Positions 58-19,311 of a stretch of DNA of 23,645 nucleotides are shown in pieces. Numbering within the stretch: the stretch's first letter is position 1; every line of letters begins with the position of its first letter. The notes under the pieces were generated by a model. The model did not search any database. It saw only the letters and a program-made list of their open reading frames with translations, and was not told the DNA's origin. Source of the stretch: an uncultured cyanobacterium (GTDB lineage: Bacteria; Cyanobacteriota; Cyanobacteriia; Cyanobacteriales; Cyanobacteriaceae); contig CAVVOP010000013.1 in the NCBI GenBank assembly GCA_963749915.1, positions 1 through 23,645 of the forward strand, given 5' to 3'. Position numbers and translations under genes: made by a program.

Positions 58-633
58 AATCTGTCCTTCCCCCGTCCTCAACTGCCATGATTATTTGACT
101 GAGAGGGCTATCGCTTCCAGTGTATTAATTGCTAATTTGAAGGATCAAATTACGAAAATAGGAGAACATATAAACTATTTAGAGGAGAAGATTCGATATT
201 ATCAATTATGAAATTGGACTAATTTTATTACTTTAGAACCAGTGAAGTTAATTCAGAATCTTTTTGGTGGTGGTGATGTGCAAAGAAATCAATTAACTAT
301 TACTGATATTGAGGTCAAAATAAACAGTTTAAAAGCCAATAAAAATAGTTTGGAAAATCAATTAATTGTTGAGAAAGATAAGGTTAAAAATGAGGTTGCG
401 ATTCCTCATTAAACATTGAAGAAAGTAGAGAAAGGATTAAATTAATTAATCAGAAAAAGAAAAAAGTTAATTTACAGTCTCAAGTATTTTTCATTAAATA
501 TAGTAATGGAGAAGGAACGACAAATCAGTATTTAAACTATCAGGAAAATATCGATAAACTTGATTTTGATTTACTTCAAGCTACTAATGATTATCGGCAA
601 AATTTATCTAAATTGATGTTGTTAGTTGAGTAG
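1..633 (+). pseudogene. 3' part of a frameshifted coiled-coil hypothetical plasmid protein
   Basis: Manual translation gives ...NWTNFITLEPVKLIQNLFGGGDVQRNQLTITDIEVKINSLK... and ...YLNYQENIDKLDFDLLQATNDYRQNLSKLMLLVE* in changing frames; stop at 631-633. Confidence 0.5.
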
Positions 634-830
634 GCCTAAACATAGGGTTCTTGTAACGAGGGGCAGCGTGCAAAAGCTAGATAAAAAGGGCTGAAACCAT
701 TATTATTTCCTTGCTTCCCCGTAAAATACAAAATTAATACAAGAGAAAAAAGTCAAAGGCTGAAACACTTATAAATAAAGAGTTTTAACTTCAAGTTGCA
801 CGCTTGTTGCACCGAGCCTATGTTTAGGTC
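633..830. mobile_element. 198-bp MITE with terminal inverted repeats and 5-bp target duplication
   Basis: Left end GGCCTAAACATAGG, right end reverse complement GACCTAAACATAGG (13/14). Inner AGCGTGCAA/TTGCACGCT pair. GAGTA on both sides (628-632, 831-835). No ORF. Confidence 0.8.
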
Positions 831-916
831 GAGTAAAAGAACATGCAGAAAATGGATTGAGATGAGAGAAGATACATTTTTACCTTCTTCATTAGTATAT
901 CCACTAAAACCTAGAA

Positions 917-1002
917 ACCTAACGGTTGAGTTCAGCGGCGGCTATTAACCTTTTTATCCTAGCCAACCGTCTTTATTCCGCCGCTGCAACGATTTGTTAT
1001 GC
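917..1002 (-). other. Integron attC recombination site
   Basis: Minus strand reads GCATAAC-AAATC-GTTGCAGC-GGCGG...CCGCC-GCTGAAC-TCAACC-GTTAGGT, the R''-L''...L'-R' layout with an extra base in L''. It lies about 24 nt after the stop of the RM gene. Confidence 0.85.
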
Positions 1003-1025
1003 CCTAATGCCTGATTTAACTATGC

Positions 1026-3683
1026 TCAAGATAAATCTTGGCCCACTATGACGTTATCGTTATCACCTTGTTGGGCTATATTCTTCTTCAGCAATCCCGC
1101 CATTTCTGCTGACATTAATTTAAGGGATATTTCTATATTTTCTTTTGCTTTCACCATATCTCTGGCTGCATTTATAATATTTTCTACAAGCTTCCAGTCA
1201 TCTGGAATTGGAATTAAAATCGAGGATATATGCTTCGGTTCCAGATGTTGTTGAACAGAACCATACTCGTTTCTGATCATCTGATCATATCCTGCAAACG
1301 ACTGTAAATATGCGTATACGTAAAGGCGCAACTTTTCATCAGAAATTCTTACACCAATCATATCGTCAGAGACAATCACTCCTACGAGCTTTTTAGTTGC
1401 ATAGGCTACACGTCCAATTGTCCCAGATCGCGTAACTAAAATATCTCCATGATTGACCCTTAAAGCCTTGATTGTACGAAGTTGATTTGTAGATGCTCGT
1501 GATATATCGATTGGCTTAGCACTCTCAGATTTTTCTTGTAGCACAGCCATTGGTGGATAGTAGAGTTCTGATCCCCTTGAAGCATCATCAACGACCAAAT
1601 TTTCTGTCTTAATTCTTGGCCCTTTAAAGATTGCAACATCCTTTGATATTTGTCCAAGAGTTGATACAGTCCATCCGTCAATACCATCTATCTCTTCAAT
1701 TCCTTTAATTGTCCTGTTTAAGTTAGGAAGATAGAATTGAGGGTTTATACACAAAGTTTCACTTAGATTTGTTCGCTCAACGGAAAATCTATATTCTGAC
1801 TCCTTCAGAGTATTTTTTTCAAAATCTCTATAATCAGATAATATTTCGTTCAAATCATGATTGATAATATCTGTCTCTGTATTCTTATCATCGCGCTTAA
1901 ATATTGGAATACCTTCGCTATCTTGTCCAACTTTTTTAGAAACTCCCATAAAAATAGAATAATTTGTGCTAATTTTCTCCCCCTCTTTTGGGCGATAAAT
2001 AAATACCAAGCAAGTTCTTACACCCGTATGTGGTTGAAAGGTGTTTTTATGGCAATTTACAACTGCTAAAAGTTTGTATCCATTGAACAATTGCTTTCGT
2101 GCGGGATAATAAGTTGTTGTGTCTAAAAAACTTTTTGGCATTACTATCCCAATTTTTCCACCAGGTGATATCCATTTAAGGCAACGCTCAAAGAACAGCA
2201 TTTCAGGTGGAACTCCATCATCTATAATTTGTGAAGTAAACTCAAACTTACCTTCCACGTTCTGTCCACTTCATCCCACAAGAGTAATTGTCTAGTATTT
2301 TCTTGTCAGTGATCCTACCTTCACCAACTCCACCAAAAGGGGGATTAGTAAGTATTATTGTAGGCTTACCTTCACCAGCACGAGCTATCACATGATCGTC
2401 AAGTTTAGCAAAAAGCCCAAGACTATCTCCTTGCGTCATGCCTGCGTGACCATCGCCATTTAAAATCATTGCAGTTTTTGCAATTTTCACCAACCGCTTG
2501 AGCTTTGCTCAATTATAAACAAATTTGTTCTATGTTTATCTAATGCGCGCTCTTTTGATATTTTTGTTCCAGTACCTGTAAGAATATTCTTTCGGATAAA
2601 GCGCATAGCAACTGTAAGAAATCCACCTGATCCACCCGCAGGATCAAGAATAATATCCCTATAATCAGGGTTTAAGATGGCTACCATCAAGTCAATTACT
2701 GGACGATTGGTAAAAAATTGCCCCTGTTGCCGCTTTAGATATGAAGCTGTATATTGCTCGTATGCGCTTCCCATTATGTCCCAATCATCGGAGTCATGGA
2801 GATTGCTTAACAACCTAAAACTTTGCAGTTCATTCACCACGTCACAAATAGCACGCTCCCCAACAGTAATTCGCTCAGTTTCACTAAATACCAATGGATT
2901 GGTAGAAACTGCTTCCTTAAACAAGTTTTGAACTCTCAGAGCTACAGATTTACGTCCTGCATCACTACCATACTCTTCTGGAGTGCAATAAATATCAGGC
3001 ATCTCTTCAGACTTCTCCTCATCTATTGCTTTGGCAAGAATCCGACGAATCATATCCATTGTTAAATCATCCTCATCACCATCAATCCCTCTACCATGCA
3101 ATTTGTTATGGCAACGACGAAGTAATCCTTTTATGTCTTTGGGTCTTAATAAATCTGACTTATTTCTGCGCCTAGTCCAATCCCATACCTCCCCGTTACG
3201 AGGTAGCCCTGTCCAATCGATTAGAATGTTTGAAGGGTTACTAAGTCTACGAAAATACTTAACATTGTCACCGTTGAACCATGCTGCACCATTTGAACTA
3301 GTATTGAAAATATATGAAACTAATTGGTTATAACCATTTGTTTCGCTAGGAGCCTTGCACTCTACAATTATGTCAATCTGACCTTGGTTTCTTTCCTTAC
3401 AGGCTTTGGGGTTATTGTAAACTACAATATCTGCTCTTACTGGGTTTCCTTCTTTGTCTTTTACTTCACTTCTTCCGTAGTAAATTGGAACTGTACGAGG
3501 ACGAACACTTTTAGGGTAATTATATTCGTAGTGAAGTGTTCTCAAGTACAGTTGCCTAACATATTCCTCAGGTTTTGGTTCAAGTTCAATAATTGAAAGA
3601 AAGTCAACAATCTTTCCATTTTCGTTTAGCGGTATATCAAATGAATTCTGAGGATTGCCCATTTTCAAGTTTAGTGTTTCCAA
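1026..3683 (-). pseudogene. Fused restriction endonuclease / N6-adenine methyltransferase / specificity-domain protein (type IIG/IIB-like), split into three ORFs by two frameshifts (~2490, ~2255)
   Basis: N-terminal HsdR_N-like PD-(D/E)xK (PEEYVRQ...RADIVVY...IIVECK); GQFFT; motif I ILDPAGGSGGF; motif IV NPPF in 2248-2493; HsdS-like C-terminus (GDILVTRSGTIG, GSVQQHLEPKHISSILIPIP). Confidence 0.85.
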
Positions 3684-4125
3684 CTAGTAAAGTTTTTATG
3701 CCTAAATTCTAGGGTCTCGCCATAATTAAGTTAAGAGGTGCAGGACTAACCCAACATAAATATATACAATCTATGACATCTACAACCAACTATCTTGCTT
3801 ACCCAATCTTGGCGAAAACAGATAGCTTCAGGAGAGGGATCACTTTTCAGCATAACTATTTATTATAATGAAACTTTCTGGATAACATACCAAATAGTTA
3901 TATTATCAAGAAATATTCTGTATATCAGATTATGGTTAAAATCTACCAAAAAATTTCTTATAAATTTATTTTATTCAATATAAGTATAAGTAAAAAACCA
4001 TTACCGAGATATTTTTCTTAATATAAATATATATTACCCATACATTTTTTAATATTACCTATAAATCTTTTTCTCTAAAAACACTATAATTACTTAATAA
4101 ATTTTAACAATTTCTGTGTGAGGAA

Positions 4126-4352
4126 ATGTCAAACTTAATATTCATCGAAGCTCGTGGTGGGTTAACTACGGGTGAAACGCTTTTAGAGTTAATTAATCAA
4201 TATCCGCAAGGCTGTACTATAAAACATCTCAGTAAAGCTATTAACCGCCCTGTTAGTCAATGATTAACTTATCCCTCAAGGCATTGATTAGTAACAAACA
4301 GGTTAAGGTAAAGCTGATGGGAATGCAGAGATTGATTTATCCTAGAGTTTAG
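4126..4352 (+). pseudogene. Small winged-helix DNA-binding protein, frameshifted
   Basis: GAGG then ATG 4126: MSNLIFIEARGGLTTGETLLELINQYPQGCTIKHLSKAINRPVS, continuing in another frame as MINLSLKALISNKQVKVKLMGMQRLIYPRV*. Confidence 0.55.
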
Positions 4353-4366
4353 TTTTATCTGAAGTC

Positions 4367-4624
4367 TTAAATATCTCCTTTATAACTCGATGACCAACCA
4401 AATAATTTTCGTAGGCGTTGAGAAGGATTAAATTTAAACACTGTACTATCCCTTTTTCCTTCAATATAAAATGTTCCAAAATTTCTTAAATTGACACTTT
4501 CTTTATCTTTTAAACAATCATATATTTCTTCTAAGGTGGCATTAACAATTTTTTCGACAATCTCATCTTTTTGATTAATTTTTTCAGCAATACGTTTTAC
4601 TAATTCTTTCTGATTAATAGACAT
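4367..4624 (-). CDS. HU/IHF-family DNA-binding protein with shortened beta-arm
   Basis: INQKELVKRIAEK...V.LRNFGTF...FKFNPSQRLR matches the HU body; the RNPxTG arm is absent. Confidence 0.8.
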   Translation of the reverse strand: MSINQKELVKRIAEKINQKDEIVEKIVNATLEEIYDCLKDKESVNLRNFGTFYIEGKRDSTVFKFNPSQRLRKLFGWSSSYKGDI

Positions 4625-5193
4625 TTTATTTCTGTGGAGTCTCCATAAAACCTAAATGTTTCTAAATATCGATGACGAATCGAACCACAATTAACATTTT
4701 CCTCGACTTCAATACTTATAGTCGGAGATAACAAACTATAAGCTACTCTCCATTGACTATTCCCGACTAATACACCAGCCGTTTTCGGATTGAGTTTAAT
4801 GACTTCACCAAACAGTTCATTTCCTTGTTTATCTTTGAAACAAACGTGGTCACCAACTTTAATATGATTTTTGTTAGTTTTTTGTTTCGCTTTAAGATTA
4901 ATGTCAATATCTAAATTATCGATATTTATACAACAATAAGGAATATTCCATTGACCTCCATCATGTTGATTCTCAATCAAAACTTTCGTTGTTTTTAGTT
5001 GAATGATAGTAGCTTTGATTAAACGATTTTCTGTTAGATCAAAATAGCTAATTAATTGACCTACTTTGAGATGATTTTTAATTAAACTTAACCTAATAGG
5101 ATCATTTAATTGTTGATGAATAGCCACATTTAATCTATATAAGTCGAATAATGAGGCTTTATTTAACTCCGTTATTATTGCTGTATAATCCAT
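4600..5193 (-). CDS. Hypothetical protein with two SH3/KOW-like repeats
   Basis: Likely ATG at 5193 (MDYTAII). Repeated LKVGQLISY...W.IPY and IKVGDHVCF...WRVAY segments. Confidence 0.7.
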   Translation of the reverse strand: MDYTAIITELNKASLFDLYRLNVAIHQQLNDPIRLSLIKNHLKVGQLISYFDLTENRLIKATIIQLKTTKVLIENQHDGGQWNIPYCCINIDNLDIDINLKAKQKTNKNHIKVGDHVCFKDKQGNELFGEVIKLNPKTAGVLVGNSQWRVAYSLLSPTISIEVEENVNCGSIRHRYLETFRFYGDSTEIKCLLIRKN

Positions 5194-5206
5194 ATTTCTC
5201 AAATAT

Positions 5207-5463
5207 CTAAATATTAAGAGATAACTGACCAATAAGGATATTACCTTTACCGCCTTGATGATATTGGAGATGACAGGTATTGCATAAAGCTACTAAATTC
5301 TCTACTCTGTTATCTTCTGGTATTCTGTTCCAGTGGTGTACTTGCAGACAGTTACCCCTAGTTGATTTTCCTTAAAGTCTGCACCGCAGTTACTACACTT
5401 CCAGTTTGTCTTCTCTTTAACTGTTGTGGCTATCTCCTGCCAATCTTTACTATATCTGCTCAT
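5207..5463 (-). pseudogene. HNH endonuclease, one frameshift
   Basis: MSRYSKDWQEIATTVKEKTNWKCSNCG... then LQVHHWNRIPEDNRVENLVALCNTCHLQYH...GQLSLNI*; CxxC, HH-N-H and CxxCH motifs. Absent from the ORF track. Confidence 0.8.
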
Positions 5464-5522: not shown

Positions 5523-5609
5523 TGCGTCTCAATCGCCGTTGCTGTCCGTCTCGGTGGGGATTCTGTTTGTGGCTTTGTCTGGGTTGTTTCCGTCACCGTT
5601 GTCCGTTAA
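5523..5609 (+). pseudogene. 3' remnant of an adenine-depleted gene paralogous to 15519-15803
   Basis: Translates CVSIAVAVRLGGDSVCGFVWVVSVTVVR*, matching SAVAVRSCPAVAGCWVVSVPVV. Only two A in 5533-5606. A T-run follows at 5628-5635. Confidence 0.65.
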
Positions 5610-5943
5610 GTGTTTCTCGTTGGGGGCTTTTTTTTATCTTTCTAATAAGTGTATTAAACTTTACATTACTGGTAAAATACTTTAATTTTGGTTCTAGTAC
5701 TTTACTTAGTAAATTATTTTACAACTACTCTTAAATACACTTAGTAAAACACCAATATTTGAATAATCACAAATCCTTATTCTAAAAGACATAAAGCCTC
5801 ATATCTTCTCTTAAAGTACATATCTACTAAATCAATTAAAAGGCTAGATTAAATTGCTTATAAAAAACTTAATAATTCATTTTCGTACTTTCGCAGTTTT
5901 CATGGATAAAATGAAAAAGTATGAAAATTGACGAGATCATATT

Positions 5944-14489: not shown

Positions 14490-15442
14490 ATGACAAGCAT
14501 TCAGCCAATTCGACCCAATATTACCTTTTTAGCTCCCGTCTCCTCAAAGGTGGATTGGGAAAGGGTTGTTAGTGACTGGATTAAAACAAAGCGATCGCAC
14601 CATACTCAACGGGCATATTCAAAGGATCTAAACTACTTTTTAGCCCATGAACAGGGTTTAACGGTGGAGAATTTTCTCAGGGATAGCCACCTGCCTACGA
14701 AATTTCCTCTCGTTATCGGGGAAGACTCATCGAACAAGGCAAAAGCGGTGCTACCATTAACCGAAGGCTATCAGCTTTAAAATCCCTCACCGCCTACTGC
14801 TACCAGTGCGGACATTGTGAATTTACCCTCGAAGCTGTGAAATTGGAGAAGTTGAAAACTTATCGGGATACTTCAGGTATCGATGTTACTACCTATAAAG
14901 AAATCCTAGAAATCTGCGAACGTACTACGATTCGAGGGCTAAGGGACTATGCTATTCTCACCCTGCTTTGGTCTAATGCTTTGCGTCGTTCGGAAGTGTC
15001 TAAGTGCAATGTGTCGGACTTTAATCCCCAAGGGCGAACTCTAAAAATCTTTGGTAAAGGTCGAGGAACTCAATCAGAAATCATCACCCTGGGGCAATCA
15101 ACGGTAAAGGCGATCGCCAACTATCTTGAAACTCGAATAGCTTTACCCCATGAGCCATTATTTGTTGCCCACAAACCAGGTTATGAAGGTAGGCGACTAT
15201 CAACTAATTCTATTTATAATATTGTCCGCACTCGTGCTACTGAGGCAGGAATTACTAAGGTGATGAGTCCTCACAGGGTAAGGCATAGTGCCATTACTAC
15301 TGCTCTCGATGTCACTGGGGGAGATGTGCGACGGGTGCAGAAGTTGAGCCGTCATAGTAATCTTAATACTCTGATTATTTACGATGACAACCGTATCAAT
15401 GCCCAAGCCCAAGTAACGGAACTACTGGATGGGTTGGTGTGA
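14490..15442 (+). pseudogene. XerC/D-like tyrosine recombinase, frameshift near 14690
   Basis: N-terminal SHHTQRAYSKDL, then ATINRRLSALKSL in the second frame; catalytic R (NALRRSE), K (GKGR), HxxR (HRVRHS), H (LSRHS) and Y (IYDD). Confidence 0.88.
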
Positions 15443-15478
15443 TGGGTTGGGGAAATTATAGATATTATCCTTAACGAC

Positions 15479-15511
15479 AAAAAAAAGAAGGCAGGGGCAA
15501 CAACCCCCACC
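15479..15511 (-). terminator. Adenine-free intrinsic terminator
   Basis: Minus strand GGTGGGGG-TTGTTG-CCCCTGCC-TTCTTTTTTTT, just after the TAG at 15519-15521. Confidence 0.65.
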
Positions 15512-15518
15512 AGAGCCA

Positions 15519-15803
15519 CTAGGGAAGAGAAGCCCAAGCACCCCACCCACGAACGGGCGAGGACGCAGGAACAACAACGGGAACAGACACAACCCAGCAC
15601 CCCGCAACAGCAGGACAAGAACGAACCGCCACCGCCGAGAAACCACAAGCACCAGCCCACCGCCGAGCAAAACCCGAAGCCAAAGCCAACGAACCAAACC
15701 GAGCAACCAAACGGAAGCCACCACCAGAACGCCCCGGACGCAACCACCAAGAACAACAGCCACAAGCCAACGCCGAACCAGAAACACAACGGAAAGAAAC
15801 CAC
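15519..15803 (-). CDS. Adenine-free small protein (94 aa from GTG; frame open to 15857)
   Basis: No A on the sense strand except in TAG; codons mostly end in T; followed by a terminator; paralogous fragment at 5523-5609 supports this frame. Start uncertain (GTG 15803 or CTG 15839). Confidence 0.7.
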   Translation of the reverse strand: MVSFRCVSGSALACGCCSWWLRPGRSGGGFRLVARFGSLALASGFARRWAGACGFSAVAVRSCPAVAGCWVVSVPVVVPASSPVRGWGAWASLP

Positions 15804-16217
15804 AGCAACAACCGCCCACGAGGACGAACGAAAGAACAGCTTTCTTCTTGCCCGACCTCATTTTTCACAGAGCGCTTGAAATGGGCGCAAGGCAGGCGCA
15901 GTCGCCGTTACGAAGACTATAAGCAAGTAGAACTAAACTATGGCGGCGCAAGTCGCCTAGTCGCCCCACGATAAAGGGCATAATAGAAAAGCTGTCGTTC
16001 ATTATCCTCACCAGTTCTAGCCACGCAGTGGCCAGTGAAGGCAAAAAGACTATGTTTTTAACCACTAATAATGTGTTGAAAAGTGTTTTCTATAGTAGCT
16101 GTATTTCAAGCTAGATATTAATATATATTAAGAAAAATATCTAGGTAATGGTTTTTACTTATACTTATATTGAATAAAATAAATTTATCAGAAATTTTTT
16201 GGAGTTGATAAGAAATT

Positions 16218-16568
16218 ATGTCTAAACAAGCCTGGCTTCTCTTTATTGATGGCCGTATTGCTCAGGAACAAGGTGATATAGACTTAGCATTGCTGAAAAT
16301 TAAGCAAGCTCTCGATATCACCCCATCAAATCCTTCTTTCTTACGTGCTTATGCTTCTGCTCTTTTACAGAAAGCAAGTTCTTCATCTGCAACCGGTTCT
16401 GACATTGAAAACAGATATCAGCAACTGGCTGCTGAATTGGCGTTCGCCTCTGAGTCTGACACACCCAACAACTGGATTCCTGCTCTTGAGGAACTCAAAC
16501 AATCCCTAGAATCAGCCCCACTTCCTGCTCCTGGTGCAGCCGCGTTAGTATCGGCCGTAGCTTGGTAA
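16218..16568 (+). CDS. TPR-like small protein, putative precursor with C-terminal core AAALVSAVAW
   Basis: GGAG upstream; AWLLFIDGRIAQEQGDIDLALLKIKQALDITPSNP is TPR-like; ends LPAPG-AAALVSAVAW; directly upstream of a radical SAM gene. Confidence 0.75.
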   Translation: MSKQAWLLFIDGRIAQEQGDIDLALLKIKQALDITPSNPSFLRAYASALLQKASSSSATGSDIENRYQQLAAELAFASESDTPNNWIPALEELKQSLESAPLPAPGAAALVSAVAW

Positions 16569-16604
16569 ATGCGGGTATCGTGACTTAATATAAGCGAAAC
16601 AAAC

Positions 16605-16649
16605 AGAAAAACACGATACGATGTTTACTACATCATTACGTGTTTTTCT
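16605..16649 (+). terminator. Stem-loop between putative precursor and radical SAM gene
   Basis: AGAAAAACACG...GATGT-TTACT-ACATC...CGTGTTTTTCT. Confidence 0.55.
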
Positions 16650-16698
16650 ATCCTTCATTGATCAATGGTAATAAGGTGCATAGAAATATCTTAAAATA

Positions 16699-18117
16699 AT
16701 GAAACTTCAACATGGACATCTAATAGCATTTGATAGGTTTATGCCAATTTATAATTGGTACTACCCCATATATAATACTGTTTACGACACCCAATTAAGT
16801 AATCCCTGGGATATTTATTCACATGTCAATATTGAGGGAATTAATAGTAGAGCACTTTATATTCATATTCCATTCTGCGAAACCATATGTTCGTTCTGTC
16901 CTTTTTCACGCACAACTTTTGCCTCTTATAGCAATGTCAAGAGATATGTTGAAGCACTTATTAAAGAGATCACTTTAAAGTGTAAACATAAAACAATTAC
17001 AAATATCCCGATCTCTGCGATTTATTTTGGGGGTGGAACCCCATCTGTTCTAGAACCTGACGAGATTATTTTAATTGGTCGGGTAATTAGGGATAACTTC
17101 GATCTCTCACAATTATCTGAATTTTCCTTCGAGTTTGAAGTCAAAAGTGTCTCAAAGGATCGAATTGATGCGCTCAAACAAATCGGTGTTACCCATGCTC
17201 GATTTGGGCTACAGACTTTCTCAGAGAAATATAGGAAACTATTCAATCTTACGTCATCATTAGAGCAAATTTATGATGCTTCATCAACACTCGTTGAAAA
17301 TTTCGATTACGTGTCCTTCGATATGCTCTATGGCATGCACGGCCAAACTGATGAAGAGTTTGTGGCTGACATCATACAAGCTACAAAAATGGGAACGAAT
17401 AATATAGATTTCTATCCAATTAACAATCTTGTCACACAGGATATATTACGAAAAAACTATGATAGGGATGGTTTAAAGGCAAGTAATGGTCTACGAAAAC
17501 TACACCTGAACGTGCTGTTAAGAGAATATTTAGCGAAACTTAATTTCTTTCCCCATAATGGTCATGGCTATGTTAGAGATGGATCAGGAAACAATGTGAA
17601 GAAAGAGTGCATAACTACCGATAAATACATCTTCAACTATCATAAACATGTCTACGGATACAGTGATACAGATCTTCTCGGATTTGGAAATGGGTCCATA
17701 TCATCTTTCTCAAATATTACAGTCACAAACTGTGATGATCGTGAGAAGTATATTGATAGTATAAATAGTGATCGAATTTTTTATCAAGTTGGTGAACATG
17801 AGCATGGTGCGTTTTATAACAAACCAATCACGATGCATTTACCTTATTTTGGATACCTTGATAAAAATTTAGTCAACTGGAACAATGTAAACCCATTTAT
17901 TATTGATAGCTTGGAAGAGCTTAAAAAGTATAGGCTTGTTTATGAAAACGAAAACGATTTTTATCTAACATTTATCGGATGGCTTTGGTATGTAAACCTA
18001 TTTTATTATCTTTCATCACCATGTGAGCGTCTCGGACTTGACATGCTAATTAAGCGTTTCCAAGACGAAATATCATACAATCCAAGTGAGGAGTATGAAA
18101 TAAAAATCCCGCGCTAA
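16699..18117 (+). CDS. HemN/HemW-like (class C-type) radical SAM enzyme
   Basis: LYIHIPFCETICSFCPF (CxxxCxxC), YFGGGTPS, RFGLQTF, FDMLYGMHGQT and LLGFGNGSIS. The N-terminus has PIYNWYYP where HemN has PRYTSYP. Confidence 0.92.
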   Translation: MKLQHGHLIAFDRFMPIYNWYYPIYNTVYDTQLSNPWDIYSHVNIEGINSRALYIHIPFCETICSFCPFSRTTFASYSNVKRYVEALIKEITLKCKHKTITNIPISAIYFGGGTPSVLEPDEIILIGRVIRDNFDLSQLSEFSFEFEVKSVSKDRIDALKQIGVTHARFGLQTFSEKYRKLFNLTSSLEQIYDASSTLVENFDYVSFDMLYGMHGQTDEEFVADIIQATKMGTNNIDFYPINNLVTQDILRKNYDRDGLKASNGLRKLHLNVLLREYLAKLNFFPHNGHGYVRDGSGNNVKKECITTDKYIFNYHKHVYGYSDTDLLGFGNGSISSFSNITVTNCDDREKYIDSINSDRIFYQVGEHEHGAFYNKPITMHLPYFGYLDKNLVNWNNVNPFIIDSLEELKKYRLVYENENDFYLTFIGWLWYVNLFYYLSSPCERLGLDMLIKRFQDEISYNPSEEYEIKIPR

Positions 18118-18135
18118 TTAACATGTTCTACTGGT

Positions 18136-18747
18136 CTATAACATAGGTGGTTGTCCAGTTGGCCCTTGAGCAGAGGGGAGTTTCCTCAATATCTTTATAA
18201 ATTCCTGTGAGGAATATAGTGTTCCATATTTCAAATAGTCTAGATATTGCTCTGGAGATTTAACGAGTAAGATATTATTTCGGGAATTCTCATTCAGCCA
18301 AAATGTATGCATATGAAACTCTGGTATTAGTAATAACCTGACGACTGGATCTCCAAGGACATTCCTATCTACCCAATCAGTCGCCTTTGAAATAGCTCTA
18401 CTAACCTGTGAATTGGACGAGACTCGTAGGACAGACCAGTCAGAAGATTTGTCATCATTTGGTGGTCGTGTTTCTGCGAAGCTAATATCAGAGTCATCAA
18501 TTGAGATTTGGTGATGCCAATGATTTAGAGGTTTAACATAGTTCCCAAAGGAACCACTATCTAATTTTAGGGAGTAAACGCTACATTTGAAAGTCCAAAT
18601 AGATAACGTTTCCTTTATTTCAGCCTCCGGCAGAGCTCCTCCTGGTGGTGGAAGGAAATCCTTTCTTATTAGTGGATTCAGCCGTTCTCCAATTAGCGGT
18701 GCAATTATGTCAATTGCATTATCTGGTAAGGTATCTGTGTGTGTCAT
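18136..18747 (-). CDS. Hypothetical protease-partner protein
   Basis: Intact 203 aa, 21 nt downstream of the protease. VRLLLIPEFHMHTFWL resembles an uncharacterised family I recall next to papain-like proteases. Contains LPPPG. Confidence 0.75.
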   Translation of the reverse strand: MTHTDTLPDNAIDIIAPLIGERLNPLIRKDFLPPPGGALPEAEIKETLSIWTFKCSVYSLKLDSGSFGNYVKPLNHWHHQISIDDSDISFAETRPPNDDKSSDWSVLRVSSNSQVSRAISKATDWVDRNVLGDPVVRLLLIPEFHMHTFWLNENSRNNILLVKSPEQYLDYLKYGTLYSSQEFIKILRKLPSAQGPTGQPPML

Positions 18748-18768
18748 AAATCAGTTGCGTACTCTTTT

Positions 18769-19311
18769 TTAATTAGATGTAATATTAGTGTATGTCAATA
18801 CCCAATCTCCAAGATCATATGCCGATAAGACATATTCATATGAACATCGACTAGTTTCAAACCATGGATCGTGAACCTCTACATCACCATTAGAATAGTA
18901 ACCTCTAACGATTGCAACATGAGAATTACCACTATTCCAGAGAAAATATGGCTCAATCGGTTGTCCAACATCTAACTGATCTTGTAGTTCATCTTTACTC
19001 AGTGCTCGCTGCACTCTATCATATTTAATATTCCAATTTGAATACGATCTATCAGGCCATCTAGCCTGATTACAAGAACTTGGCAGCGGATTTTGATCAA
19101 GTGGACATTGATCCCCGAGCTCAAATGATACAATCTGCTCCTGAGTAACATTATTTATCCCATAATGAATAAAAACCATTTCACAGCAAGCAGCCCAACA
19201 CCAATTAGTCATATTTTGTTGTCGGTATGGAATTGCTAAAATAAGATCTATACTACCTGGTGGTGGAAGAGATGAAGGAATCTTCTTTCCTGACGAAACC
19301 TTTAGTGGCAT
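18769..19311 (-). CDS. Papain-fold cysteine protease (C39-like / AvrRpt2-like)
   Basis: IPYRQQNMTNWCWAAC (oxyanion Q, catalytic C), SHVAIVRGY (H) and VHDPW (D); no signal peptide. Confidence 0.88.
   Translation of the reverse strand: MPLKVSSGKKIPSSLPPPGSIDLILAIPYRQQNMTNWCWAACCEMVFIHYGINNVTQEQIVSFELGDQCPLDQNPLPSSCNQARWPDRSYSNWNIKYDRVQRALSKDELQDQLDVGQPIEPYFLWNSGNSHVAIVRGYYSNGDVEVHDPWFETSRCSYEYVLSAYDLGDWVLTYTNITSN

Follow-up and report, generated by a model that had tools for sequence, protein, structure and literature searches.

The stretch of DNA described here raises the question of why a gene should be written almost completely without adenine. The stretch, referred to as the window, comprises 23,645 nucleotides (nt) from an uncultured member of the Cyanobacteriaceae (GenBank assembly GCA_963749915.1, contig CAVVOP010000013.1), with 35% G+C and 33% T. 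Its + strand is free of T over 320 nt (15521-15840) and again over 47 nt (15473-15519), and the resulting 368-nt tract (15473-15840) is composed of 153 A, 135 C, 79 G and a single T at position 15520. Elsewhere in the window the longest T-free run is 25 nt, and the number of T-free runs of at least 320 nt expected by chance in the window is approximately 4e-53. The single T lies within a CTAG and gives the minus-strand stop codon TAG (15521..15519), which contains the sole sense-strand A of the gene. These base counts agree with the original prediction, made from the sequence alone, of a + strand without T in 15521-15840 and with only one in 15473-15840. The single A in the minus-strand TAG, the A-free start (GTG or CTG) and the restriction of the reading frame to ten residues (F, L, S, C, W, P, R, V, A and G), which had also been claimed, can be read directly from the sequence, and a tandem-repeat search of the tract (0 rows) is in line with the statement that it is not a simple repeat. 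The open reading frame (ORF) at 15803..15519 is very probably a real gene that is kept adenine-free by selection. It belongs to a family for which the name ORF-A was coined here. The gene and the parts of the element adjoining it are as follows:

15521 to 15840, + strand: T-free run (sense strand A-free), the longest single-base-free run of the 4.69-Mb genome
15519 to 15803, minus strand: ORF-A gene, GTG start, TAG stop, 94 amino acids (aa); E = 6.8e-26 with a profile partly built from its close relatives; 34 aligned homologues, 7 of them with a normal alphabet
15804 to 15839, minus strand: in-frame A-free extension, either leader or alternative start; its CTG is conserved in the paralogs and in the related genome G003 and is TTG in the related genome G010
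15479 to 15511, minus strand: A-free hairpin resembling an intrinsic terminator (stem 15511..15490) with U-rich tail (15489..15479)
15841 to 15861, minus strand: leader; contains the sole A-rich patch (15841-15849) and an ATG that is out of frame (15861..15859)
15862 to 16204, minus strand: upstream region common to the paralogs (paralog comparison), presumed promoter and leader

The frame is intact from either of its in-frame A-free start codons, CTG 15839 or GTG 15803, through TAG 15519. In alignment A3 (see below), the homologues P0124-P0127 begin where the GTG is located. One additional base in the A-rich leader puts the ATG out of frame in the window copy; in the paralogs on contigs C23 and C8 and in G003, the ATG is in frame.

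Paralogs in the source genome

The source genome (G000; 4.69 Mb, 37.5% G+C, 34 contigs, with the window as contig C13) has only four places with such runs, namely C13:15521-15840, C23:14291-14601, C8:877342-877652 and C7:9342-9667, the last one consisting of 196 and 129 nt with one A between them. After these four, the longest run lacking any one base in the genome is 115 nt. The four copies are 87-96% identical across the conserved part and have approximately 360 nt of upstream sequence and the terminator in common, forming a unit of about 730 nt (15471-16204 in the window). Three further partial copies are present, and the tract is A-free in each of its copies in this genome. The paralog alignment (282 columns) contains 38 variable sites with at least 41 changes, only one of which involves A (P ≤ 1.3e-6, if one third of changes led to A). 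The A-free state was thus maintained during the divergence of the copies. Indels among the copies on C13, C23 and C8 are multiples of three. In a scan for single-base-free runs in 20 genomes of the family, the extra cases (G002 and G013) were simple tandem repeats. A nucleotide search with the tract gave no match in a plasmid collection; variants of the element were found in metagenome assemblies from freshwater sediment, lake water and a bioreactor.

Identification of the coding frame

Since every stop codon needs an A (or, on the other strand, a T), all six frames of the tract are necessarily open, so that an open frame alone proves nothing, and the frame was fixed by homology. Nei-Gojobori analysis of the four paralogs was ambiguous, with pN/pS values of 0.64 and 0.66 for one sense and one antisense frame. 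A nucleotide similarity search against 61 related genomes yielded weak matches in G003 and G010, where a tract of approximately 540 nt with four A has the same 5' motif and ends with a hairpin and a U-run. The adenine-poor proteins of G003 and G010 define a second family, named ORF-B here. The translations of G003 and G010 in the sense frame, as defined by the conserved 5' motif, gave a score of 439 (z = 33.7), compared to z = 25.0 for the antisense frame sharing the wobble position and z ≤ 9.0 for the remaining four frames. An ATG is present in the sense frame, the few A of this frame are located in Asp, Glu, Met and Gln codons, and its stop codon directly precedes the terminator. The same frame aligns with annotated proteins of normal alphabet. 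The distant homologues thus settled the coding frame after the ambiguous test with paralogs only.

Two other candidates were considered. A hydrophilic protein encoded by the T-free strand was ruled out: without T a start codon is impossible, so that the antisense frame cannot start, and the TAG opens this conserved antisense frame. A signal peptide, lipoprotein or precursor of a ribosomally synthesized and post-translationally modified peptide, with a radical SAM protein and a C39 peptidase encoded nearby, was dropped, since the three other paralogs and the homologues are found without such neighbours.

Avoidance of adenine at the nucleotide level

Adenine contents were determined for 24 distinct A-poor ORF-A genes and 69 ORF-B genes and compared to flanking open frames (stop-to-stop segments of at least 200 aa, which are not verified genes). 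A accounts for 39 of 6903 nt in ORF-A (0.56%) and for 872 of 36246 nt in ORF-B (2.4%). Among the codons for L, V, S, P, A, G and R, those containing A amount to 8 of 1933 in ORF-A (0.4%) and 344 of 9915 in ORF-B (3.5%), compared to 17390 of 65371 (26.6%) in the flanking frames. Codons for residues that require A are similarly scarce (27 of 2301 in ORF-A, 484 of 12082 or 4.0% in ORF-B, 47483 of 120549 or 39% in the flanking frames). The residual A of ORF-B are distributed evenly over the three codon positions, with 260, 348 and 264 (flanking frames: 20363, 23928 and 18076). As stop codon, ORF-B genes use TAG in 53 cases (78%), TGA in 12 and TAA in 3 (n = 68, one more gene being cut by a contig end), compared to 57 TAG, 70 TGA and 91 TAA in the flanking frames. 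TAG is preferred over TGA in ORF-B though both carry a single A; TGA is possibly rare because it is leaky and a back-up stop is impossible in A-free sequence.

Downstream of the ORF-B stop, A has a frequency of 0.09-0.10 over the first 20 nt, rises to 0.14-0.19 as far as 50 nt and reaches 0.22-0.30 beyond, and a run of at least five T is found within 90 nt of the stop in 46 of 67 cases. The A-free run of locus L118 begins right after a TATAAT box. In every locus examined, it is always the sense strand that is affected. A dominance of A-to-G among the replacements was not seen in these genes, A being replaced by T, C and G alike. Because synonymous sites avoid A, the nucleotide is the cause, and selection is shown to act on nucleotide content and not on amino acid choice alone. 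Such selection had been proposed in the original prediction, and it is upheld by the near absence of A-containing synonymous codons, the divergence of the paralogs without A, the gradation of homologues between normal and A-free and the use of stop codons with one A.

The ORF-A family

For the intact paralog (110 aa), nine close database relatives were found among 21 candidates. Searching the fetched loci with a profile built from these relatives revealed 29 open-frame segments that contain the ORF-A domain; four matches have a normal alphabet and 22-36% A (L008:468-857, L092:5585-5830, L065:6214-6474 and L053:5627-5872). The family is defined by alignment A3, which has 35 rows, 28 of them A-free and seven normal (the four named and three more). 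The window frame (15522-15857) matches the profile over positions 2-92 with the E-value listed above, and independent members from other phyla reach 1e-19 to 1e-27. The invariant residues R34 and P87 and the nearly invariant F48, F57, V72, R73, V84, S85 and V86 are all present in the window protein. Conserved motifs of ORF-A are, in this order, R-x-S-x-R-S-x-[ST]-G-[FYW]-V, ...V-R... and V-S-[VI]-P, the first of which is altered in the subgroup of the window (RPGRSGGGFRLV).

The ORF-A product is a small alpha/beta protein of 90-135 aa. For the window protein, AlphaFold2 predicts the order helix-strand-strand-helix-strand-strand (predicted local distance difference test, pLDDT, 78.9; predicted template modelling score, pTM, 0.73), a small a-b-b-a-b-b unit that would not be a Rossmann fold. 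Comparison of ORF-A with Pfam, PHROGs, NCBIfam and PADLOC gave nothing meaningful.

A search of 1.84 billion representatives yielded 512 ORF-A representatives at E ≤ 0.001 and 182 at E ≤ 1e-10. Among the best 150, the share of residues that require A ranges from 0 to 50%: it is below 2% in 49, 2-5% in 23, 5-10% in 22, 10-20% in 26, 20-30% in 16, 30-40% in 12 and above this in two. Free use of A by homologues, which the original prediction had named as a finding that would speak against it, holds for some distant homologues, namely seven of the 35 rows of A3 and approximately 14 of the 150 representatives (those with at least 30% A-requiring residues); most homologues do not use A freely. The adenine-poor trait is graded and derived, not absent. 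That the adenine-free state is derived follows from the existence of normal-alphabet relatives. Compared to these, I is replaced by V, T by S, H by R, E by V and Y by F or S. Adenines were therefore purged and the nearest residues encodable without A substituted, with the fold being kept.

The ORF-B family

Among 788 candidates, 120 database clusters belong to ORF-B at E ≤ 0.01; each of these is annotated as 'hypothetical', and none has a Pfam domain. Nearly all members consist of F, L, S, C, W, P, R, V, A and G with 1-15 exceptions. In an alignment of 33 members, GFSGSR, VGCAxGxD, RS and GSGSWxSxAxAxG are invariant; we take GSR, GxAxGxD and SGSxxS in ORF-B to be the motifs so named in the SLOG superfamily. 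AlphaFold2 predicts an alpha/beta fold (pLDDT 85.0, pTM 0.79). In an exhaustive structure comparison, the top matches of the model were DprA proteins (3uqz, Z 8.9; 3maj, 8.8; 4ljk, 8.6), followed by LOG-like proteins, the SLOG domain of ThsA (7uxs, 8.1), YpsA and ShosA. Foldseek against the PDB gave only generic Rossmann or weak matches for ORF-B. The Pfam model DNA_processg_A weakly matches eight of the 33 members (best E = 0.0031), and the neighbours of ORF-B in the ESM Atlas are clusters with DprA domains and YAcAr/YspA SLOG clusters, many of them from phages. Going by the predicted structure, ORF-B is a DprA/SLOG-like Rossmann fold.

The ORF-B profile did not match any frame of the four copies in the source genome (best E = 0.2). 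In IMG/VR, 24 viral contigs with ORF-B were found; the match has less than 6% A in 16 of them, and the rest of the locus 15-36%. A tblastn search with ORF-B gave no match in plasmid and phage collections, for which the low-complexity filter may be the cause.

Linkage and distribution of ORF-A and ORF-B

Both families are present in 27 of 80 loci. ORF-A is located directly upstream of ORF-B on the same strand in 21 of 29 pairs, mostly at a distance of 22-137 nt, and both form one open frame in five loci and in 23 of the 120 database proteins. The A-poor tract of pairs and fusions reaches 0.8-1.7 kb, for example 1118 nt with three A (two stop codons and an Asp codon) in L112, 966 nt with one A in L118 and 1687 nt with seven A in L083. 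In G003, a normal-alphabet ORF-A is encoded approximately 650 nt upstream of an A-free ORF-B. In three cyanobacterial loci, the order is different and a normal-alphabet ORF-A (L092:5585-5830, L065:6214-6474, L053:5627-5872) lies 66-731 nt downstream of an A-poor ORF-B. The two genes of one pair can thus differ completely in adenine.

Relatives of ORF-B are encoded in 98 stretches, of which 78 loci were kept (one genome per species); the lowest A count per 300 nt in the ORF-B loci is 0-29, mostly 10 or less. According to the record titles, the carriers are Cyanobacteria (Microcystis, Pseudanabaena, Nostoc, Anabaena, Microcoleus, Synechocystis and others), Bacteroidota (including a complete Roseithermus chromosome), Ignavibacteria/Kapaibacterium, Competibacter/Contendobacter (Competibacteraceae), Blastocatellia (Acidobacteria), Abditibacterium, Anaerolineae and Desulfobulbus. 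The flanks of 14 loci (126 ORFs) encode tyrosine and serine recombinases, ArdA (two loci, downstream in L061 and L055), Sipho_Gp157 with Rad52, DdrB, YqaJ, PDDEXK DUF3799 (two loci), SNase (two loci), KilA-N, SymE and a terminase; SSB is also encoded beside members. Integrase genes are located within approximately 0.3-1.2 kb of the paralogs on C23 and C7, and the other paralogs adjoin integrases, ParA/ParG, Gp157, a Gp49/helix-turn-helix (HTH) toxin pair and transposases. Within the window, genes for an integrase, an HTH protein, SSB and Gp157 are present along with pieces of a restriction-modification methylase. An anti-defence or stress-proof role of the gene, as originally suggested, is a possible reading that fits this mobile and phage setting near anti-restriction and recombination genes.

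Transcription signals

The 3' end of the gene has the features of a predicted Rho-independent terminator, i.e. a G+C-rich hairpin immediately followed by a U-run, on the same strand and 3' of the stop. The stem consists of nine pairs, six of them G-C and the others G-U, and is followed by the tail TTCTTTTTTT. The claim of an A-free terminator with G-U pairs was recovered in this way by the terminator scan, with a folding energy of -17 kcal/mol (z = -2.9). Hairpin and tail are kept in four of four paralogs, and analogous ones are located 3' of the G003 and G010 genes. A 383-nt contig assembled from an RNA library spans 15480-15856; such contigs reveal neither ends nor strand and may include DNA, and it gives a weak hint at the 5' end of a transcript. 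No weight is given to uneven depth along the stretch or to parts of it that a sequencing run leaves uncovered. No Rfam 15 family matched the window at the gathering score; at E ≤ 5, two chance-level matches were obtained outside the tract. No tRNA or tmRNA was found in the window.

In the minimum-energy fold of 15856..15473 (z = -2.3), the leader patch (15841-15849) pairs with the U-tail (15479-15489). This complementarity is readable in C23, C8 and G003 too and is a lead only.

Other features of the window and the source genome

Two further features of the window are as follows:

5523 to 5640, + strand: A-poor putative ORF-A remnant (7 A in 118 nt), resembling the C-terminal half, with terminator-like end
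14490 to 14780 and 14837 to 15442, + strand: tyrosine recombinase in two frames (Phage_integrase, E = 9.9e-25)

The paralog remnant at 5523 that had been reported in the original prediction is weakly borne out: in a three-sequence search, frame 2 of 5470-5670 matches positions 46-80 of the ORF-A profile (E = 4e-4), and no nucleotide match of the tract was found in this region. The recombinase is convergent with the A-free gene, its stop being 30 nt from the terminator tail, and its split is explained by a frameshift, which would make it a pseudogene, or else by a sequencing error.

Just upstream of the element, 16218-19311 encodes a TPR-like ORF, a 472-aa radical SAM protein and a C39-like peptidase, which are not found beside the other paralogs and could be a peptide-maturation cluster. 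Two adjacent ORFs at 1026-3683 (minus strand) contain type I/IIG restriction-modification pieces (HsdR N-terminus, N6 methylase and specificity domain) and may be one split gene. A 107-nt G-free run (4009-4115) is located in very AT-rich DNA, and an 89-nt AT-rich repeat at 3946-4034 is 93% identical to approximately 16115-16202 in the far upstream part of the element, with another copy on C21.

Reverse transcriptase (RT) genes are encoded elsewhere in the source genome. Approximately 120 nt after the stop of a 384-aa RT gene on C8 (L122 = G000:C8:884000-893000, 3833-5227), a copy of the upstream flank without the A-free gene is found in the same orientation; the surroundings contain insertion sequence fragments and a truncated integrase, and the 9 kb show no direct repeat of at least 40 nt. 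A complete diversity-generating retroelement (DGR) cassette is located on C1 (L123 = G000:C1:20000-28000, 111-4695), with a 1001-aa nSTAND1/FGE-sulfatase target, bAvd and a 356-aa RT. It is followed on the opposite strand by a HigB-like/HTH pair.

Possible causes of the adenine loss

The selected property might be one of the messenger RNA, since a translated part without A would offer no target to endoribonucleases (RNases) that require adenosine. Such RNases include MazF-type ACA cutters, ToxN-type enzymes, HigB/RelE-type ribosome-dependent cutters at A-rich codons, adenosine-specific Csx1/Csm6-type enzymes, some Cas13 in their collateral activity, and RNase E at A/U-rich sites; A-free sequence holds no ACA, AAAU or AAA. 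The element would keep making both proteins while toxins of the host or of rivals and abortive-infection RNases destroy ordinary messages, and the ORF-A and ORF-B proteins would probably have single-stranded DNA that is entering or recombining, or else a nucleotide signal, as their target. We put forward an RNase-proof message as the favoured, though tentative, explanation for the loss of adenine. In general terms, phages and integrative elements of many phyla may carry a small ORF-A/ORF-B operon rewritten without A, down to the choice of start and stop codons and, in some cases, the terminator, whose early message would be uncuttable by, or independent of, adenosine-requiring agents, a reading that we regard as possible and hold with the same reserve. 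The facts to be explained are the independence from the reading frame, the choice of start and stop codons, the avoidance being strongest in the translated part and partial in the 3' untranslated region (UTR), the restriction to the sense strand and the gradient among homologues; an RNase-proof message would fit all of them. Circumstantial indications for RNases are the 14 HigB-family toxin genes in the genome of the window, which represent opportunity and not cause, the pairing of the A-patch with the U-tail and the RNA-library contig at 15480-15856.

Several observations weigh against this explanation. The leaders of the window group hold 8-10 A, and some members keep ATG and Lys or Glu codons N-terminally, so that avoidance is not absolute over the whole transcript. 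The 3' UTRs are only partly depleted, with a median distance of 9 nt from the stop to the first A. We know of no RNase that needs just any single A, and total avoidance would therefore be overkill for one enzyme; MqsR-type GCU cutters would still cut, and a purely A-site (HigB-type) model does not explain the loss of ATG. The RNA library is represented by assembled contigs that are possibly DNA-derived, and a promoter scan found no sites with sigma-70 consensus for the window gene. No clear structural relative of ORF-A was found in the PDB (best Z 6.0; Foldseek E ≥ 0.16), and the genome of the window, with four copies of ORF-A, has no ORF-B at E ≤ 0.01.

Protection might instead be effective at the level of decoding. 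A-free codons can be read by U-free anticodons and dispense with the tRNAs for Lys, Glu, Gln, Asn, Asp, His, Tyr, Thr, Ile and Met, i.e. the usual targets of the anticodon nucleases PrrC, PARIS AriB and colicin E5 and of collateral cleavage by Cas13a, so that synthesis of the proteins could continue after cleavage of these tRNAs; ArdA-type anti-restriction proteins trigger such nucleases. In line with this, A is depleted most strongly within the coding part (0.6-2.4%, compared to 9-15% past the stop), none of the three codon positions is exempt, ArdA is encoded downstream in two loci, and the genome of the window has a tRNA with U-free anticodon for every A-free codon except GTG and GGG. However, the window gene does use GTG and GGG codons, which need U34 tRNAs in this genome. 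Start and stop codons are not read by elongator tRNAs, and still TAA is found in only 3 of 68 ORF-B genes compared to 91 of 218 flanking frames and GTG replaces ATG in fully A-free members; the terminators in the group of the window are A-free as well. Avoidance of vulnerable tRNAs is thus rather unlikely as the cause. Start, stop and terminator, to which the bias extends in the group of the window, would be accounted for if the DNA itself was protected: a T-free template and A-free sense strand would be immune to agents acting on thymine or adenine of one strand and could be transcribed early from entering or damaged DNA. Such agents include DarT, which ADP-ribosylates thymidine in single-stranded DNA, excision of uracil or modified thymine, and ultraviolet-induced dimers that block RNA polymerase; type I sites and palindromic A/T sites, which need A on both strands, become impossible. 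This would agree with a bias that is strictly strand-specific and frame-independent, with the location of the genes in early, recombination and anti-restriction regions with SSB, DdrB, Rad52 and ArdA, and with the resemblance of ORF-B to the single-stranded-DNA protein DprA. On the other hand, A and T abound on both strands in the rest of each element and a shield of 0.3-1.7 kb does not protect it, it is not evident why the bias should be relaxed in the 3' UTR compared to the coding part, and the T-rich sense strand (41% T in the window gene) is itself prone to thymine damage. We therefore give protection of the DNA a low probability, too.

Transcription without ATP, in which an A-free message is elongated under ATP depletion caused by ATP-degrading defence effectors, RADAR-type deamination or, in cyanobacteria, darkness, seems improbable. 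The A-free tract spans from near the predicted transcription start to the terminator and the stops use the fewest possible A, but 8-10 A are already found within the first 20 nt of transcripts of the window type, the charging of tRNAs for translation needs ATP, and non-phototrophs carry the family too. A mutational origin, with A erased by an adenine-mutagenic RT of the DGR type or by adenosine deamination and only indispensable A kept by selection, would account for the coincidence of the tract with the transcript and for the replacement of A by T, C and G alike. The source genome does contain the complete DGR (FGE-sulfatase-domain target, bAvd and RT) on C1 and the RT on C8 close to the flank copy. 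However, no RT is encoded among 126 + 32 flanking ORFs of 17 loci and neither RT nor Avd among the 27 window ORFs of at least 90 aa, no A-carrying template copy was found in the genome and no direct repeat near the C8 RT; the lack of A-to-G dominance argues against deamination, and protein folds and motifs are conserved across phyla. A mutational cause is considered very improbable. The same holds for a non-coding RNA or DNA element whose open frame is a mere by-product of the loss of A, which we would expect in hardly any case. Six frames are open by necessity, the window ATG is out of frame compared to C23, C8 and G003, and Rfam, Pfam, PHROG and NCBIfam gave no matches. Against this stand the frame-specific conservation, the homology to normal-alphabet proteins that is readable in one frame only, the indels in multiples of three in C13, C23 and C8, the confidently predicted folds and the A-B fusions.

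Implications

If selection can strip one base from whole genes, nucleotide content itself would be a target in the arms race of mobile elements and hosts, beyond short motifs. A given protein can be written both with and without A, which gives an experimental handle on toxins, CRISPR RNases, anticodon nucleases, nucleotide depletion and DNA-modifying defences. Hundreds of natural, foldable ten-letter proteins beside normal-alphabet homologues bear on minimal alphabets and protein design and would, if true, be a natural demonstration that some ten amino acids (F, L, S, C, W, P, R, V, A and G) suffice to build alpha/beta folds. Gene callers face six open frames in A-free genes, and the lack of tblastn matches in the phage and plasmid collections is a warning that low-complexity filters hide real genes.

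Comparison with known systems

No description of natural bacterial or phage genes lacking one base was found in the full-text literature, with subscription journals and supplements outside the scope of the search. Adenine-free gene families appear undescribed, though an earlier report is possible. The closest engineered case is 'single protein production', in which ACA-less messages escape the mRNA interferase MazF. There, as would be the case here, a nuclease target is removed from the mRNA through codon choice. The engineered messages drop one trinucleotide and leave the protein unchanged, whereas in the natural genes every adenine is affected, start and stop codons included, and the proteins are forced into a ten-letter alphabet. 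In the avoidance of restriction sites by phages and plasmids, host nucleases likewise select the composition of mobile DNA, and an A-free strand has no A/T palindromes. Such avoidance concerns short words genome-wide, in contrast to one base on one strand of one or two genes. DGRs are, to our knowledge, the only natural process acting specifically on transcript adenines. Their variable regions are short and not A-free, and the A-free genes are not accompanied by a template repeat, Avd or RT.

An A-less coding stretch interpreted as a signal at the RNA level, in addition to its coding for hydrophobic residues, is reported for the adenine-poor signal-sequence coding regions of vertebrate secretory mRNAs (PMC2100147). 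That case is eukaryotic, covers tens of nt and concerns nuclear export, in contrast to whole bacterial and phage genes of 0.3-1.7 kb. The functional absence of a kind of residue from a protein is shared with lysine deserts, which, according to PMC10169902 and PMC10665810, are a protein-level feature of one residue; here, ten residues are missing and the nucleotide is the cause. With the SLOG superfamily (DprA/Smf, LOG, YpsA, YspA/YAcAr, ThsA SLOG and ShosA; PMC6459960 and PMC7272460), ORF-B shares the predicted fold (Z 8.9-7.9). It differs in scoring below the curated cut-offs (Pfam E = 0.0031; TIGR00732 13.5 bits, cut-off 191) and in being built from ten amino acids plus Asp, and the predicted fold of the ORF-A protein of the window is not that of SLOG proteins.

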